A stretch of 64,000 bases of DNA. Source: Octopus vulgaris. Lineage: Eukaryota. The stretch is taken from contig OX597829.1 of the NCBI GenBank assembly GCA_951406725.2, forward strand, positions 35,588,001 to 35,652,000, in the 5' to 3' direction. Positions 6,283 through 61,897 of the stretch are shown piece by piece. Position numbers and translations under genes: made by a program. Position 1 is the first letter of the stretch; every line of letters starts with the position of its first letter. The notes beneath the pieces are model-generated. The model was not told where the DNA came from. It did not search any database and was given only the letters and a program-made list of their open reading frames with translations.

Positions 6283-6420
6283 GTGGAGGCGCAATGGCCT
6301 AGTGGTTAGGGCAGCGGACTCGCGGTCGTAGGATCGCGGTTTCGATTCCCAGACCGGGCGTTGTGTGTGTTTATTGAGCGAAAACACCTAAAAGCTCCAC
6401 AAGGCTCCGGTAGGGGGGAG
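6283..6420 (+). mobile_element. tRNA(Arg)-like SINE head (family B), 3' truncated
   Basis: A box TGGCCTAGTGG, anticodon-like GACTCGC, B box GGTTTCGATTCCC. Same head as 55195-55563. Confidence 0.85.
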
Positions 6421-8580
6421 GGAATCCAAGGTAGCGTTCCAATCCCCTACTAACAGTAAAGGTCTAGACGTACCCAGGAAAACCTCTAGACGTCTGAAGA
6501 AATCCGCCCGACCCGTTAAGGACGGTGCATAAACTGCCATCAGACGGAATGCACACCCATTTCTGCCATCCATGTTCAAGACAACGAGCCTACCCTCCGG
6601 GTCTAGGAATATTGTTCTTACTTTTACATTTAGACTCTTTCGAAAAAGCACCGCGGTACCTTCACCACCCATGTTCGGCAGACGGGGAGAAAAATAAATG
6701 TCAAATTGATCGCCAAACATGGACGCGAGGGCCCGCAGCTTGCTGAGTCTGGTTTCACTGATAGCCACGTTCAGTGACTTGATGTCGTTTAGAAGGTAAC
6801 CTTGCTTCCAAGCCGACGCCAAGTCACGCGCATTCACACAACCTAATTTAAGCATAATTGACGTTTACGAAAATTGTGTTTCACACACTACATTGGAAGA
6901 GACAAGAGGCAAGAGGGAAGGTCACTTACTCATTTCGAAAGTTTCATTTTTTCTTCTTCTTTTGTAGTGTCTTTGACGAGGTGTTTGTATAGTTTTTTGA
7001 GAGGTATCGTTGAAACCCGCCTACCGCATTTGGAAATATTGTTTTCAGTGTATGGTGTTGTGTTTGTGTTATGAGTACAATTCTTATGTGTTTCGGTGGT
7101 GTGGTGCGCGGATGATTGTTTGTCTTAAAGTCATTTTCACAGATGTCCGTGTTGGATGCAATGTAATCCATTAATTTTTTATTGTCTGTGTCTATTGCAG
7201 TTAGTTGTGTGTATGGTTTTGCGGGTTCATTGATTTTTTTTATCGTCTAGGGGGATGCTGTCCGGAGTTAAATATCTCCTTGCTTTACTTCTTTGTTTGG
7301 TGGGGCTTTTTGATCTTTCCCTTTTACCCCCTGTGGCTATTTGCCATTCCGTCGAACTTTCGTCGTCCGACGAATCAGAAAGGGGTAAAGGCAAAGCATT
7401 TGCTTTAATATGTATGCTTGTAGAAATTGTTCATGTTTGTGCGGTGTTTGTGTTGTTGTGGTGTTAGGGGTAGAATTTGTCTTCTCGTCACTGTTTTCTG
7501 TCTTTTTAATTGTCGTCCTCGGTGTTGGTGTTGGTCTATCTTTTGGTTCAGTATGTTGAATTGGTTGCGACGTCAACGGTGATTGTGTTGGTACTGTTTC
7601 TTTTCTTGGTGATGTTGTTGGGGTTTGTTTGCTGGTTTGTTGTTTTTCTTGGCATTGTTCCATAATTGAGTGTGTTGGTGTTGGTGTTGGTGTTGGCAAC
7701 AAGGGTTTTTTATTTGTTTTCTGATTTGTTCTTTCTTGTTTTTTCTGTGTCAGAGCGCACTTGGCAATTAAATGTTCTGGGCTGCCACAGTTGTAGCATC
7801 TAGGCTTTTTGCCTTCTGCTACAACATATAGGCTTTGCTCATTTTCTAAATGGATCCTATCAGGTAGGTTCTCGATAGAGGACCCCTCAATCTGGATGGT
7901 CACTACTATTGTTTTACGACCCCAATTGTCGTTTTTGTACACGGCGCTTTCTAATATATTTATCTTTTTCAAATGGTAACAGATTGCCCCTGTTATCCAT
8001 TTGTTTGGTGTCTCGGGGGGTACATTTTTAATGCTAATTCTACTCACTCTCTGGCCTTTGTAATATGGTACCATGATGATTTCATCATTTTGCAAAGACT
8101 CCGTAGAGTGGTTTTTTATCACTTCCTGGTTGGGGAAGCGGACCACCACTGTATTAAACTGGGGACCCCAGTTTATATATTCTTTTTTTTTTCATTATGC
8201 TTTTTAAACACTTTTCTATGTCCGTTTTTGTAATCTGTTTATTTTGTTTTTTCTTATAATTTTATATATAATTGTCTTATTTTCTATTTGTTCCTTTATG
8301 TGTTGAGCTGTATGCAGCACTAAATCCTGCCCTTGTGTTGTAAAGAGTGCTCTCGTTTCTATTAACTCTTCATTCGTAAATTTTACTATTTCTTGCATAA
8401 GTTCTTTTTTCTTCAAGTGTTTCCACACTAGGAAAATGCTGGTCCATAAAGGAATGCGACCAGCGTTCTACAATAACATTTCTCGACATTTTTTAATGTC
8501 GAGAAGAAAAATACACAAATCAAATAGGGTTGAAACTGCCTCTAGAGGCGAATTCCTCCCTTGGAAAAGCACTCGTCCGT
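6421..8580 (-). mobile_element. L1/Tx1-like LINE 5' part: ORF1 (zinc knuckle) and start of ORF2 (AP endonuclease)
   Basis: ORF 7337-8149 has CYNCGSPEHLIAKC (CCHC). ORF 6388-6855 has LGCVNAR..AISET..GTAVLF..AVYAP..LVGDWNA (APE motifs). Truncated at the SINE junction; 5' end abuts (GATA)n. Confidence 0.9.
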
Positions 8581-25847: not shown

Positions 25848-27046
25848 GTTTGACTTTTGCTTTATATTTGTACAAGTTGGCTCCAAGTCTCACCCGGAGA
25901 CCTCAAGAGACAACAGGCTGGAAAGTTCACGTTGTTGTTATGTCTAGCGTGCCATATATTTGGTTGTTTTTTGTGTTGTACTGGTGGATGTCTAAAAAAA
26001 AATGTTTGTTTTAAACCTTGAGATTACATAGAAAGTATTTTGCGTAGGATATGAGCAGTTCCCATGAGCACTATCTTTTAAATTTCTGCAATTTTTGGGT
26101 TTCCTGGTATCTGAGTTAGGTAGCTATCAGCCCCTTTTGCTATCATTCCCAAGGCACCTATGTCAACAGGTATTGTTTTAGTCTTCAGGTTCCACATTTT
26201 GCTGATTTCTATTTCAAGATCTTTATATTTGCTCAGTTTTTGGTAGGTCTTGACAGATACATTTATATCGATTGAGACAGTCATATCAATGAGGAGGCAT
26301 GTTCTTTGTTTGAAGTCTTTCAATATGATGTTTGGCCTATTTGCATCTGTCAGTTTGAATGGTGAAGTTCCAGAGGAGTGAGATGTGGTCTTTTTCAAGC
26401 ACTGGGGGTGATTTGTGTTCCCACCAGTTTTGTTCATGGGGCAAATCCAGGTTTTTGCAGATTACCCAGTGAATATATTGTGCAGCTCTATCGTGCCTGT
26501 TTAGATACTCTGTAGGCGCTAGAAGACTGCACTTGGAGACCACATGATCAATGGTTTCATTTTGTTGCTGGCATACACGACACGTTGGACTGCTGCTGAT
26601 CTTTAATATGTTGGCCTGGTAGTTTCTTGTTGGTAGGCATTGATCTTGAGCTGCTATGATAAACCCCTCTGTTTCAGATTTTAAGCCAGAGGCCATTAGC
26701 CATTGATGGGTCAGGGCTTTGTCAACATCTGCATTATTCGCTCTCTTTGGGTATTTGCCATAGAGAGGTTTTTCTTACCATTTATCATTCAGAATATCTA
26801 AGGCCGCAGATTTAGCACGGGTTTTCATGCGCTTAGCTTTTTCTGTGCCTGTTTCTTGTATGTCTATCTCTAATTCCGAAATTTGTTGTATTCAGAATTC
26901 ACTTAGATATTCCTTTGCCTGTTTTGTTACTGAGTATGATGCTTTCTTGTTTTCATGTTTTGAGACAAGTTTTAACATCCAGTTCTCACAGTTTTTCAGG
27001 TAGGTGACAAGTTTTAACATCCAGTCCTCAAAGTTTTACAGGTAGG

Positions 27047-47949: not shown

Positions 47950-48190
47950 ACCACTACTTTATTATCTCCCCTTCTTCCTAGCATTCCAGTGTAACCCCTC
48001 TGTCCGGCATTCGCCATGATAGATCGCTAGTCACTACACATTCTTTATTTTCTCTCCATGGTTCTTTCTGTCTTGCTTTCTGTGGAAGAGCGTAGGCTCG
48101 AAACGTTAAAGACTTTTTCACTTCCCGAGCGTTAAACTTATACATCTGTTTGTTGCCTACACCACCTGCCTTCGTCTTTTTGTGAATTGT

Positions 48191-48195
<5 letters not shown>
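47950..48195 (+). mobile_element. Solo Penelope-like pLTR with hammerhead-like variant (48070-48113)
   Basis: CTGTGGA-A-GAGC GTAG GCTC-GAAA-CG-TT-AAAGAC. Homologous to 45120-45260; ends at (TA)n. Confidence 0.65.
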
Positions 48196-48685: not shown

Positions 48686-49689
48686 ATTATTTATTCTTCC
48701 TGCTCTCTTTCTTTCCCTTTCTCTCTCTCTCTCTCCCTCTCTTTCTCTTTCTCTTACTCTTTCTAGTTCTCTTTTTTATTCTGTACTTTTAATGTCTCTT
48801 CTCTTTCCCTGTTTCTCCGTTCATAGAAATTTTTTTTATTTTCTTTTTCATCCTCCGTTTATCTCTTTCCCTCCTCTTTAAGTTACTTAATCAGTTTTCT
48901 CTTCTTTTTTCTCTATTATGTTTTTCCCTCCTTCCTTCCCTATTTCTCTCTCTCGCTTGCTCGATCGTTCGCTTGTTCGCTCTTTTTAACATTCATATGC
49001 ACTTTCCTGTATAGCTTCAGACACACACACACACATACTCACACAGACACACACATTCACACACATGCTCACATGCAGTTGTCTCTGATTCTATCCTCTT
49101 CTCTTTCTCTACATCTCATCTGTATTATTTTAAATTTCAGTTTTCATTGTACAACTGTTGTCTTAGAGGTTTTGTTGCAGCAAAATAGCAAAGCCAAACA
49201 CGGCTTTCTGATCTTCGAGGATAATACTCACAAAATCTTACAACAACCTCCTCCTCTCTCCCTTTCATTCATTCTCTCTGCGTCTCCTTAAATACCCCCA
49301 CCCCCGAACATGCCTGACGTAATGGAAAATTTATGCCCTTGACATTTTCATTGTCGGCGATTCTGTTAAATCCAGAAACGTTATTCCTACCATCATCGCC
49401 AACCATGAGAGCATATATATGATGGCTGAAGGTAGCACCCAAATGTTCCTCATATCGCATCCTAACGTTTGAAATATGAAAATCAGATATTTAAGTTTGA
49501 AGTGCTCTGTTCACTTTAAAGAACGGTATGGCTATGGCTGTAATATTTCCTTACTTTGCTTCCTGTAACTTTCGGTTGTTCCCTAAGATGAAGGAGAACC
49601 TCAGGAGTAGTCGTTTTGAAGATAGTGGGATGAAGGAAGCTGTAAAAAAGGATCTTGTCCTTCTTCTTACTGCAAGTTTTGAAGAGTGC

Positions 49690-50680
49690 AGTTCGATTTT
49701 AACAGTTATTTTTTCAAAGCATATTTTGCTGAATGAGCTCAATAAAAGCAACAACGCAACGGAATGTGCGAGGAATATTAATGCAGGATATGGGAATCGG
49801 ACAATAAGCGTAAGCCAGTGTTAACGGTGGTTCTAGAAGTTCTGAGCCGGAACCCACAGCCTAGAGGACATGCCTCGTTCTTGAAGATCTGTAGAGCTCG
49901 ACGATGTCGTCCTGCAAACCGCGGGGGAATTAAATTCCATCCTAACAAGCAGAGAAACTAGCAGAGAAACTTGGATTTGGTTATTCAACCATTCATCGAC
50001 ACCTGTGTGCCAATGGAAAGGTCATCCAATTGGGTCAATTGGGTTCCTCATAAACTCTCCGAGTCTAATCTCGAGCAGAGAGTGAATGTGTTCTCTTCTT
50101 TGCTGTCACGTTTCACGTATTAACCTTATTTGGGGGGCCGAATAGTGACTAGTGGTGAGAAATGGGTTCTCTATAAAAATTTCAGGTACCGAAAAGTGTG
50201 GGTAGGGAAAGGAGAAACCCCGGCATCGCAAGCTAAAAAGAGTCTTTACCCACGTAAGATGTTCTTATCTGTTTGGTCGGATATGAAAGGTCTAACCCTC
50301 TTTCAACTTTTAAAACCAAACCAAAAGATAACAAACGAAATCTTTTGTGAGCAGCTTGAGCGACTCAAGTCAGCGCTTGAAGAAAAACGGACATTTTTGG
50401 TTTCAAGACGAAATGTGTTCTATCAGGATAATGCTAGGCCGCATACAGCGAGGATGACATTCCAAAGACTGGAACAGTTTGAATGGGAAACGATGCCTCA
50501 CCCACCATATTCGCCGGACAGAACAGTACCGGAGGAGTATTTTTCGTCACGGACAAGTGAATTTTGGAAGAGGGGCCTTGCAAGTCTACAGATAGATAAA
50601 AAACATTGTAAAAAATGAAGGAGAGTATATTTTAGATTATAAAAGCACTTTCTCTTAATTTTGAGAAATAAAAGAAGTGT
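49690..50680 (+). mobile_element. Decayed mariner transposase
   Basis: HILLNELNKSNNATECARNINAGYG; RIVTSGEKWVLY; QDNARPHTA; HPPYSPD. Confidence 0.9.
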
Positions 50681-55194: not shown

Positions 55195-55563
55195 GCACTC
55201 CGTCGGTTACGACGACGAGGGTTCCGGTTGATCCGATCAACGGAACAGCCTGCTCGTGAAATTAACGTGTAAGTGGCTGAGCACTCCACGGACAACGATA
55301 GTTCTCGGGGATATTCAGCGTGACACAGAGAGTGACAAGGCCAGCCCTTTGAAATACAGGTACAACAGAAACAGGAAGTGAGAGTGAGAGAAAGTTGTGG
55401 TGAAAGAGTACAGCAGGGATCACCACCATCCCCTGCCGGAGCCTCGCGGAGCTTTTAGGTGTTTTCGCTCAATAAACACTCACAACGCCCGGTCTGGGAA
55501 TCGAAACCGCGATCCTACGACCGCGAATCCGCTGCCCTAACCACTGGGCCATTGCGCCTCCAC
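55195..55563 (-). mobile_element. Full tRNA(Arg)-like SINE family B copy
   Basis: Head GTGGAGGCGCAATGGCCCAGTGGTTAGGGCAGCGGATTCGCGG..GGTTTCGATTCCC on the minus strand. Confidence 0.9.
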
Positions 55564-55828: not shown

Positions 55829-55909
<81 letters not shown>

Positions 55910-55919
55910 TATAGAAGGA

Positions 55920-55968
55920 GCTTCTACAGGACTAGAACTGTTTCATTCAAAAGAAATCATCAGGAAGC
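55920..55968 (-). ncRNA. Type-I hammerhead ribozyme, complete three-way junction
   Basis: GCTTC-CTGATGA-T TTC TTTT GAA T-GAAA-CAG TTCTAGTC CTG-TA-GAAGC; GUA site. Confidence 0.88.
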
Positions 55969-56013
55969 ATTGAGTACCTTATTTACTGTGGTTAACCCCG
56001 ACTCAACCCGGGA

Positions 56014-56062
<49 letters not shown>

Positions 56063-60299: not shown

Positions 60300-61897
60300 T
60301 TGGTCGAAAAATTATAACAGTCTCAATTGGCTGTGTGAAAGAGCAATATTGGCTTCAAAAGAAACAGCTTTGTAAGTAAAAGGAATCAACAGCTGTTGCA
60401 GTACCTTCCTGGAAGTCCTCACATCTATAAGTCAGTTGATACAATGTTAGATCCAGAAGACATGGTAAATTATCCAACAGAATTTCTCAATTTATTGGAG
60501 CCTCCAGGACTACTTTCCCACAGATTGGAACTTAAAGTGGGAACTCCAGTAATATTATTGAGAAATTTGGATCCACCAAAACTCTGCAATGGGACAGCCC
60601 TGGTAGTAAAGAAGATGATGCGACATGTTATTGAGGCCACCGTTCTCTCTGGATGTGGAAAAGGAGAGGATGTTTTCATACCCAGAATTCTTCTCATTCC
60701 ATTGGGAGCAGAAATTCCTTTTTCATTCAGAAGACTGCAATTTCCTATTCGTATCAGCTTCGCAATGTCTATCAATAAACCCCAGGGTCAAACATTGTCT
60801 GTTGTAGGACTTCACTTGGAAGAGTCGTGCTTCTCACACGGGCTATTAAATGTTGGCTGCTCTAGAATGGGAGGCCAAAAATGTCAATTTGTATTTGTTT
60901 CACAATGGAAACAAAGAATATTGTTTACCAAGAGGTTTTGTAAGTATTACGTCTTACGATGCGCTCCAGTATCCATTAGTCTTTGTGAATGGTGAAGATG
61001 AATACCATTTCGGCATAATACCAACAAACCTGAAGACTGCATCAATAAAGCTGTTTCATGCATGGACTTCAATATCAAAGCATATTCTCCATTTACACCC
61101 ACCAACCACATGGTAAGTCATTACGCCTTATTTTTTCAAGTAATTCATTACAGTAATCCATCGATTATCGCGGATATTACGTTCCAAAACCCTCGCAATA
61201 GGTGAAAACGTAGAAACAGTACTGTATATTTGTTTTTATTCTTTTTATAATTTGTATATATTTATTTCATTATAAATGCAAAACAACACCACGGAGGAAT
61301 CGATGCAAGCTTAAATAATGAACCGCGATAGGTAAACCATGATAGGTGAACCGCGATATAGCGAGGAATTACTGTATTACATATTCTCATGTGACTGCAT
61401 AGGCTCAGTTTATGTTTTTTTGTTCTACAGCCACACCGGCAACCCAATGTCAGTCCTTCGCCTTCTGCAACATTTCAACAGTTCACTTCCCCGTTGCCAT
61501 CTCCCATTGCAGCCCTTTTCCGGAATGTACCTATTTGCGTACGATACCTCCTTTACACCTGCATTCATTCGACTGTCAAACATACGATGGGTCGTATTAC
61601 ATGCAGCGCCGACAGCCGCAACGATGAGTGTATCCAATGACAGCTTTTCAGTGCGTTCAAAAATCACATATCCCCACCCTCAATTTTCCATGACAGGTGA
61701 TGGTCCGGAATCTTCCATACAGATGCATGACATGTCGCTTAGTCCAATTAGCCTATCATTTACTCTACAAATGTTTTGCCGTCAATGCTACACTTTTCCG
61801 TATCATATGTTCCAACATAACTGTAATATATATATATATATATATATACACAAACTATGCCATTTTAATCCCGAGCAGCACCAGGTATCTCTTCTAG
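60300..61897 (+). mobile_element. Non-autonomous, rearranged Helitron: PIF1-type helicase remnant, Rep fragment and 3' hairpin-CTAG end
   Basis: ORF 60396-60995 has YPTEFLN..LKVGTPVILLRNLDPPKLCNGT..RRLQFPIRISFAMSINKPQGQTL..FSHG. SYDALQYPL..GEDEYH at ~60950. Ends CCCGAGCAGCACCAGG..CTAG|T at 61870-61898. Confidence 0.85.
61151..61374. mobile_element. pogo/Tigger-like MITE with TA TSD, nested in the Helitron
   Basis: TA|CAGTAATCCATCGATTATCGCGG ... CCGCGATATAGCGAGGAATTACTG|TA. Confidence 0.85.

Follow-up and report, generated by a model that had tools for sequence, protein, structure and literature searches.

In the genome of Octopus vulgaris, a short island lying between two dinucleotide repeats carries a type I hammerhead ribozyme (HHR) and is built of two partial arms, both from a Penelope-like element (PLE), that meet head to head within a (TA)n target. 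The window, that is, the whole stretch of 64,000 nt analysed here (contig OX597829.1), offers a single example of this arrangement, and a census of related insertions in the same genome indicates how it may have arisen. From the comparison of these sequences, we consider it likely that the island results from twin priming on one RNA that was capped and still uncleaved, with cDNA synthesis running off its 5′ end.

The Hammerhead Motif and the Architecture of the Island

The HHR motif of the window is real. It is encoded on the minus strand (Table 1) and keeps the CUGANGA core, the GAAA and the NUH at the cut, together with three helices of 5 + 3 + 4 standard pairs, helix I being open. A GUA site sets the predicted cut between 55925 and 55924. 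The stems, loops, site and cut of the original prediction, which was made from the letters alone, are borne out on the minus-strand sequence, including its normal hairpin at stem III. The bare core motif has 4 matches in the window against 3.05 expected by chance, the full three-helix descriptor a single one, which is this HHR; the same descriptor finds a match in 2 of 100 composition-matched random windows. The 44-nt hammerhead core has 1,312 exact copies in the 2.8-Gb genome and its reversed control none, so that the core is a repeat and no accident. At the gathering score, Rfam gave no matches in the window; the best hammerhead match was to the type III model RF00008 (14.1 bits versus 48.5, E 3.4), with the type I model unlisted, and the E-value mode returned mostly microsatellite-driven noise from the window. 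Stem II is weak and lacks the G10.1-C11.1 pair, a U.U standing there in all common variants of the family. This pair, which opens helix II, is common in type I HHRs and not universal. U...U is also found in many Hydra hammerheads (PMC8557442). Variation between subfamilies falls at N7, loop II and loop III and spares the helices; double-sided changes were not seen in these very similar copies.

Table 1. Positions in the window of the island, its two arms and the parts of its hammerhead motif.
Feature	Position	Strand	Remarks
Left (TA)n target remnant, adjoining (CA)n 55832-55886	55887..55908	.	
Hammerhead arm (B arm), native 0-59, from first base of stem I to TA-like proximal end	55909..55968	-	60/60 identical to L135
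Predicted hairpin UAGAAG/CUUCUA over cut site and stem I 3′ strand	55910..55928	-	MFE structures
Type I hammerhead motif	55920..55968	-	Sequence, three-helix descriptor; layout as Hydra-clade hammerheads (File S2 of PMC8557442)
Stem I GCUUC/GAAGC	55968-55964 with 55924-55920	-	5 bp
Core CUGAUGA	55963-55957	-	
U.U mismatch and 3-bp stem II, UUUU loop	55956-55945	-	GAAA next
Stem III, 4 bp, 8-nt loop	55941-55926	-	GUA next
Head-to-head junction, blunt or 1-nt (T) microhomology; native 60-84 missing	55968..55969	.	2 exact genomic copies
Tail-tip arm (A arm), native 85-133, ending at distal TA-like end, inverted relative to hammerhead arm	55969..56017	+	49/49 identical to L135
Right (TA)n target remnant	56016..56060	.	

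The island spans 55909-56017 (109 nt), between (CA)n(TA)n on one side and (TA)n on the other. TA repeats had been named as its boundaries, which agrees with what we see, and so does the start given to it; the end had been put at 56015, 2 nt too early. Counting from the first G of stem I as position 0, with the native-order copy L135 as reference, the island consists of native 0-59 followed by inverted 85-133, with 25 nt absent. Its second half, described previously as some ~50 nt of accompanying sequence, is the inverted tail tip of the element, given the 49/49 match to L135; this tail tip is seen in native order in L028, L065 and L135. At either outer edge, inside (TA)n, the island finishes with a 3′ end of the element, and the tail and hammerhead alleles come from the same subfamily.

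The junction between the arms has two exact copies genome-wide, one in the window and one on contig C26 (locus L001), with unrelated flanks, and a DNA search with the island gave 15 full-span matches whose inner junctions differ from copy to copy. More generally, the island is a short form of a palindromic mini-insertion (mini) of ~200 bp, present at 41 of 77 sampled loci. In this light, the proposal of a solo pLTR end keeps the origin in a pLTR end and loses the solo, since two partial arms are joined head to head, and a minimal ribozyme mobile unit finds no backing in a junction with two copies, variable inner junctions and a parent that is a coding PLE. The search for copy number and constant boundaries, suggested at that time, gave many copies of the core (1,312) and two of the junction. 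The island, which lacks the promoter, is not a self-contained ribozyme unit and is predicted to be a dead-end by-product. Host sequence of ~80 bp is duplicated in inverted orientation around the C26 copy (at ~12003448), which stands alone in this among 75 short loci, so that such duplications are no rule of the family.

Some neighbours in the window deserve mention. An unrelated minimal hammerhead of the PLE type, with a CUGUGGA core variant, a long helix II and GUU, lies at 48072-48193 (+); its repeat also ends in (TA)n, and similar sequence is found beside the insertions at L006, L016, L018 and L024. At 55420-55563 (-) there is what we take, by eye, to be a tRNA-like SINE head, a sequence that recurs in the right flank of L005. 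Transposon fragments occur at 60339-60992, 49501-50615, 6391-8191 and 26340-26774, in all a Pif1 2B (Helitron-like), mariner HTH and DDE, a LINE endonuclease with zinc knuckle, and zf-RVT.

The Parent Penelope-Like Element

The tandem unit of the parent is 4.8-5.4 kb long and runs in the order hammerhead, tail, ATG (+182), an ORF of 713 aa, a 3′ region of 2.5-3.1 kb and again a hammerhead. The HHR lies in the pLTR, with hammerhead regions at both ends of full elements, and the pLTRs are found in tandem or partial tandem, with an inverted 5′ copy and a tail at one end. Upstream of the HHR, long copies show the 2.5-3.1 kb region, which is microsatellite-like, and beyond it the ORF. This 3′ region (L065:5910-8374, L032:4950-7845) mimics (TA)n/(TG)n, a resemblance by which the element offers its own targets, and nested copies of the family occur in L045, L050 and L069.

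The 713-aa ORF contains YRDD at 347 and a C-terminal LVY...YIG of the GIY-YIG type at 586, as well as RWR at 38 (R for the K of RWK), DKT at 116 (for DKG), GFKS (GxKF/Y is not kept), the CxCX5C linker CNCPDKTTC at 567, CDLC (CxxC) at 667 and CMH (CxH) at 695; no CCHH finger is present in its nuclease when the sequence is read by eye. A Pfam scan of this ORF gave nothing above the cut-off and one sub-threshold, unrelated match. The homologues P0002 and P0041 match PF01541 (GIY-YIG), with 41% identity over 719 columns, and a protein search with the parent ORF returned 1,118 relatives of ~40% identity. RWK, DKT, loss of GxKF/Y, CxCX5C, CxxC, CxH and the lack of CCHH are the marks of the Hydra clade in section 11 of PMC8557442, and on these motifs the parent would be placed in this clade. 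The likeness extends to a single ORF with RT and C-terminal GIY-YIG, the same RW[K/R], DKT, CxCX5C linker, CxxC and CxH without CCHH, (TA)n targets, tandem and inverted structures, and HHRs of the form CUGANGA-U...U-GAA, several of which have an ACAG/CUGU helix III and A at the cut (PMC8557442). On the other hand, Hydra-clade elements are generally below 3 kb, and the parent, at 4.8-5.4 kb including its 2.5-3.1 kb 3′ region, is larger than the 1.1-3.0 kb of the families listed there; its tail has ~70-75 nt versus 30-40 in Hydra, and the near-palindromic loop III of 8 nt is its own (PMC8557442). The HHR differs from that of Hydra-1_oBim, so that the parent is not this family. As far as the available portion of the PMC8557442 supplement shows, it appears to be a previously unlisted, Hydra-like family.

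Boundaries and Polarity of the Family

The census comprised all 77 loci behind the first 100 core matches listed of the 1,312 (contig C1) and required the exact 44-nt core in one arm, which biases it towards the window subfamily and against arms shortened within the core. Besides the 41 head-to-head minis of ~200 bp, it contained 17 head-to-head pairs with longer arms, 13 long loci with the partner beyond the fetched stretch, and 6 short unpaired loci; a single partial tandem, of 247 bp, was found among the 77 (L035). The 3′ ends of the arms are almost confined to two sites, a distal end A at +132 to +139 (64 arms) and a proximal end B at +58 to +69 (71 arms), which together take 135 of 139 arms and are both TA-like in the native sequence. 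Pairing between them is strict: 55 of 58 pairs are A+B, three are irregular, and A+A or B+B was never found. Outside the C1 sample, 37 of 39 mini pairs were again A+B, the two exceptions being complex inserts with B and A at their outer ends.

At the inner side, 53 of the 139 arms start at -1 (36) or 0 (17), and the 128 arms passing +6 are divided into 60 that stop at -2 to +1, 24 at +2 to +6, 14 in the next 98 nt and 30 beyond. Genome-wide, 6,594 arms reach position 0, among which 971 have a non-native GA in front and at least 2,590 show the native upstream pattern. In contigs of four other runs, with four organism labels and of uncertain kind, loose ends fall at most 2 bases from -1, +66 and +139. 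The family has, in short, three sharp boundaries, namely the inner wall at -1/0, the proximal B centred on about +58-66 and the distal A on about +133-139. It had been anticipated that all copies might turn out to be variable truncations of a coding PLE: the coding parent does exist, and the three boundaries are at odds with random truncation. As for the arm that extends further in the 5′ direction, a count in the 41 minis gave B in 21, A in 12, a tie in 7 and one irregular case. The partial tandems at L035:4682-4995 and L159 contain ORF-primed cDNA joined to an arm that starts at the wall.

The Inner Wall as a Proposed Transcription Start

Sequence features at the wall suggest that transcription would start at the A that precedes stem I, some 30 nt downstream of a TATA-like box. 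This box, TATAAAT, begins at -30 in the common upstream types; its conservation is not above that of much of its surroundings, and it is weak evidence for a start site because the whole upstream region is conserved. A second indication comes from untemplated bases. Copying of a cap adds an extra G, as known from LINE-1 and 5′ RACE, and where the partner arm is unable to supply the untemplated base beside the wall, this base is G in 13 of 22 arms (p 0.0007 versus 0.25). Among joints, 92 have the G on both arms and 34 on neither (reversed control 9), and many of the 92 hold a short patch of element sequence able to supply the G; fold-back of stem I, which accounts for 29 joins, can also add it. 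In 18 arms from window-like loci the untemplated base was T in 9 of 11, and the extra G is absent from the window copy. The Penelope of D. virilis uses an internal promoter without TATA (PMC2377424).

Folding and Cleavage

Monomer cleavage of the island HHR had been regarded as possible, and in its present context we consider it doubtful. In an energy model without tertiary contacts, the bare 49-mer pairs with probabilities of 0.88 for stem I, 0.20 for stem II and 0.31 for stem III, so that the isolated motif might cleave; stem I drops to 0.01 in the island itself and stays within 0.01-0.07 when flanks are added or when the native 5′ ends of two subfamilies are folded instead, because a downstream hairpin covers the cut site (Table 1). 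The folding z-score of the island (+1.05) is not significant, and another structure is predicted in place of the hammerhead. A perfect hairpin is expected to bury the ribozyme of full minis, and that of the island is predicted to be mostly folded shut rather than to cut host RNA. The idea that it could cut any host pre-mRNA transcribed on the minus strand finds no support either: among the 140 of 216 long window ORFs scanned there were no host exons, and the matches were transposon domains and weak sub-threshold or ambiguous ones, which would still allow for a large gene with an intron here. Helix III is nearly palindromic, with a homoduplex of -12.8 kcal/mol (-15.2 kcal/mol in the subfamily with intact ORFs) versus -1.4 for the hairpin, and this stronger homoduplex leaves open a dimer route, as known for PLE hammerheads. 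Dimeric PLE hammerheads were reportedly studied in 2017.

If cleaved RNA had served as template, arms should begin at the cut. Pattern matches for arm starts numbered 54 at +43, 101 at +44 and 206 at +45. Sorting of the loci left 28 true truncations out of 65 arms at +44 (59 loci, a sample enriched for T/C-preceded arms), where another 8 were joins through stem I microhomology; at +43 there were 7 of 21 (20 loci) and at +45 there were 5 of 30. These counts scale to ~36 (+44), 18 (+43) and 34 (+45). No single-base peak is seen among these three positions, where the local hairpin confounds the count. A few minis (L162, L190) have both arms starting at +44. Ultra-short palindromes, including L162, L190 and L193, gave 81 pattern matches (control 13), and in some of them both arms start at +42 to +46 with AT-rich filler in between, which makes them candidate copies of cleaved RNA.

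A deletion hot spot at the cut was considered and rejected. One-base deletions in +37..+51 numbered 330, versus 7,891 arms of normal length and 40 insertions, and in the first 100 of the 330 listed, G44 was lost in 30 and G47, which is not the cut site, in about 61. The deletions affect the two Gs of AGAAG (+44 in ~1% and +47 in ~2.5% of arms) on several subfamily backgrounds, and their candidate causes are RT slippage in the hairpin or sequencing error.

One RNA, Two Primers: A Proposed Mechanism

Alleles are shared between the two arms of the same insertion. In 29 minis outside C1 with three diagnostic sites readable on both arms, these were identical in 27, against 7.8 expected and a maximum of 16 in 10,000 shuffles. 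Together with the A+B polarity, this suggests two primers on one RNA, of which both would be expected; two RNAs from one active master are another possible source of shared alleles. The arms overlap in most minis, for which the same RNA would have to be copied twice (strand displacement). Because the arm extending further 5′ is sometimes A and sometimes B, the simple folding back of a single A-primed cDNA is excluded as a general rule. A precedent exists in a PLE of Anolis, which primes internally on uncleaved RNA, from both strands and at either end of the tail, and whose protein is a predicted dimer; no start-site difference was found there between strands in vitro (PMC11167929).

On these grounds we propose the following series of events. 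Transcription would start just before stem I, with the TATA-like box supplied by the upstream tandem unit, and a start at this A places the hammerhead, the tail and the ORF on one mRNA. The GIY-YIG nuclease would nick both strands of (TA)n, and the two resulting 3′ ends would prime at the TA-like sites A and B. Priming on the 5′-proximal copy of A/B would yield cDNAs of ~135 and 60 nt that run off at the cap, carry an extra C (G in sense) and are then end-joined into palindromes of ~200 bp, while priming on the 3′ copy of A/B would give the long insertions with inverted ends. In the window copy, the A-primed cDNA would have halted after 49 nt, before B, which corresponds to the textbook geometry of twin priming by LINE-1, in which the arms do not overlap (PMC11702581).

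Alternative Origins

The same island might be left by an ordinary palindrome of ~200 bp, or by a self-primed fold-back cDNA, from which 85 nt of the A arm were later deleted. Long palindromes are prone to deletion, and the full minis fold as near-perfect hairpins of about -112 to -117 kcal/mol. The A-arm lengths of similar copies do form a ladder, and self-priming has been proposed for inverted junctions of PLEs (PMC3846280). We nevertheless find this history rather unlikely, in view of a B arm that ends exactly at the wall, a junction microhomology of at most 1 nt, arms that are both 100% identical to the native copy, and therefore young, and a second locus with the same junction in unrelated flanks; a single fold-back requires, moreover, the longer arm to be A, and B was the longer in 21 of 41 minis. 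Quite improbable, in our opinion, is that the inner wall marks RNA processing, either a splice acceptor or a point at which copying pauses or folds back after stem I. The main alternative to a start site is the splice acceptor, because an intron of the D. virilis Penelope ends at the matching spot, the 5′ end of helix I (PMC4209133, PMC2377424), and the octopus sequence upstream of the wall also reads as an acceptor, with a pyrimidine tract and a YAG ending at position 0. Perfect palindromic joints are explained equally by two arms that begin at +1 and by an AGCT overlap at -1, and the 29 stem I fold-back joins are in agreement. Against processing, no constant upstream exon is seen, arms whose partner is unable to supply the bases carry GAG with a varying base before it, and the 29 fold-back joins compare with about 4,000 arms at the wall. 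A pause meets the further objection that RNA structure stalls a polymerase entering a helix, not one leaving it.

A minimal self-propagating ribozyme unit, akin to retrozymes or SINEs, which cleaves as a monomer and cuts host transcripts, would fit the 4-bp stem III with its 8-nt loop (1-3 nt in most Hydra hammerheads listed in PMC8557442), the 0.88 of stem I in the bare 49-mer, the one identical copy elsewhere and the fact that the window copy avoids the full palindrome that would bury the ribozyme. Such a unit is nevertheless very improbable given two copies beside thousands of arms joined in other ways, the lack of tandem repeats, an island without promoter, a hammerhead fold that is not predicted in context (0.01-0.02), arm starts at the cut site that are ~1% of those at the wall and no commoner than one base further on, and no host exon in the 140 of 216 long ORFs scanned. 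Hardly credible is a solo pLTR produced by recombination between direct repeats of a full-length element: full elements do bear the hammerhead region at both ends and solo pLTRs are reported in rotifers (PMC3846280), but one native-order arm with upstream sequence would be predicted, and the island is formed by two inverted arms with nothing upstream of 0. Twin priming on one capped, uncleaved RNA is thus the reading we prefer.

Comparison with Known Systems

A close parallel is Poseidon PAc of Anolis, where two internal initiation sites also bound the tail, both strands are cut and extended, targets are AT-rich and the RNA template is uncleaved (PMC11167929). That system differs in that priming in vitro occurs without target homology or strand asymmetry, whereas here the ends are TA-like and one of each is found, and in that its ORF begins inside the hammerhead, here 182 nt after it; the Poseidon PAc hammerhead is inactive without protein (PMC11167929). 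The minimal hammerheads of PLEs resemble ours in lying in pLTRs, mostly as scattered remnants with some close opposite-strand pairs, and in a palindromic helix III that suggests dimers, and their activity in vitro is low; the octopus motif, however, combines a long helix III with a short helix II that lacks G10.1-C11.1, and the scattered motifs were read as truncated PLEs, with no fixed 5′ wall defined in the part of the study available (PMC4209133). In twin priming by LINE-1, too, the other DNA end starts synthesis at an internal site of the same RNA, and joining of the cDNA ends creates an inversion marked by microhomology or untemplated bases; the second site of LINE-1 is variable and its arms barely overlap, whereas here it is fixed and the two arms of most copies span the same 60 nt (PMC11702581). 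Non-LTR retrozymes are likewise non-coding, derived from PLEs and endowed with a type I hammerhead, but they form head-to-tail tandems with a hammerhead per unit, in contrast with the single head-to-head insert and variable junctions of the island (PMC7229834; bioRxiv 10.64898/2026.07.22.740005).

Earlier papers already describe hammerheads paired at short distance on opposite strands, inverted pLTRs with palindromes at the junction, and tails at one side. For a fixed 5′ wall, A+B polarity or twin priming in PLEs, no published description was found in a search that was thin on subscription literature and had supplementary figures outside its scope, and the available portion of PMC8557442 yielded no description of a mass production of 200-bp palindromes for the Hydra clade.

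Implications for Penelope-Like Elements

Taken alone, the island is an unremarkable scar, one among thousands, left by an element that belongs to a known class, and its value lies in the boundary statistics of the family. The origin of the inverted ends and the one-sided tail of PLEs has been named an open question (PMC8557442), and later steps of integration were left unvalidated (PMC11167929). A young, high-copy family with sharp boundaries, strict A+B pairing and shared alleles leads to countable predictions on PLE integration, and it supplies both a minimal template of ~140 nt and an intact 713-aa ORF. More tentatively, and aware that it may well prove wrong, we suggest that the minis are a fossil record of a dimeric RT that primes one capped RNA at two fixed sites on opposite strands, in which the start would coincide with the first base of the hammerhead and the hairpin would keep the ribozyme inactive as long as no protein or partner RNA enables it to remove the capped leader. 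If true, this would explain together the inverted pLTR, the one-sided tail and the palindromes. By extrapolation from 41 of 77 loci, the genome would harbour about two thousand perfect hairpins of 60 bp as possible sources of dsRNA. Finally, our results suggest that silent by-products make up many of the hammerheads recorded as solo in animal genomes.
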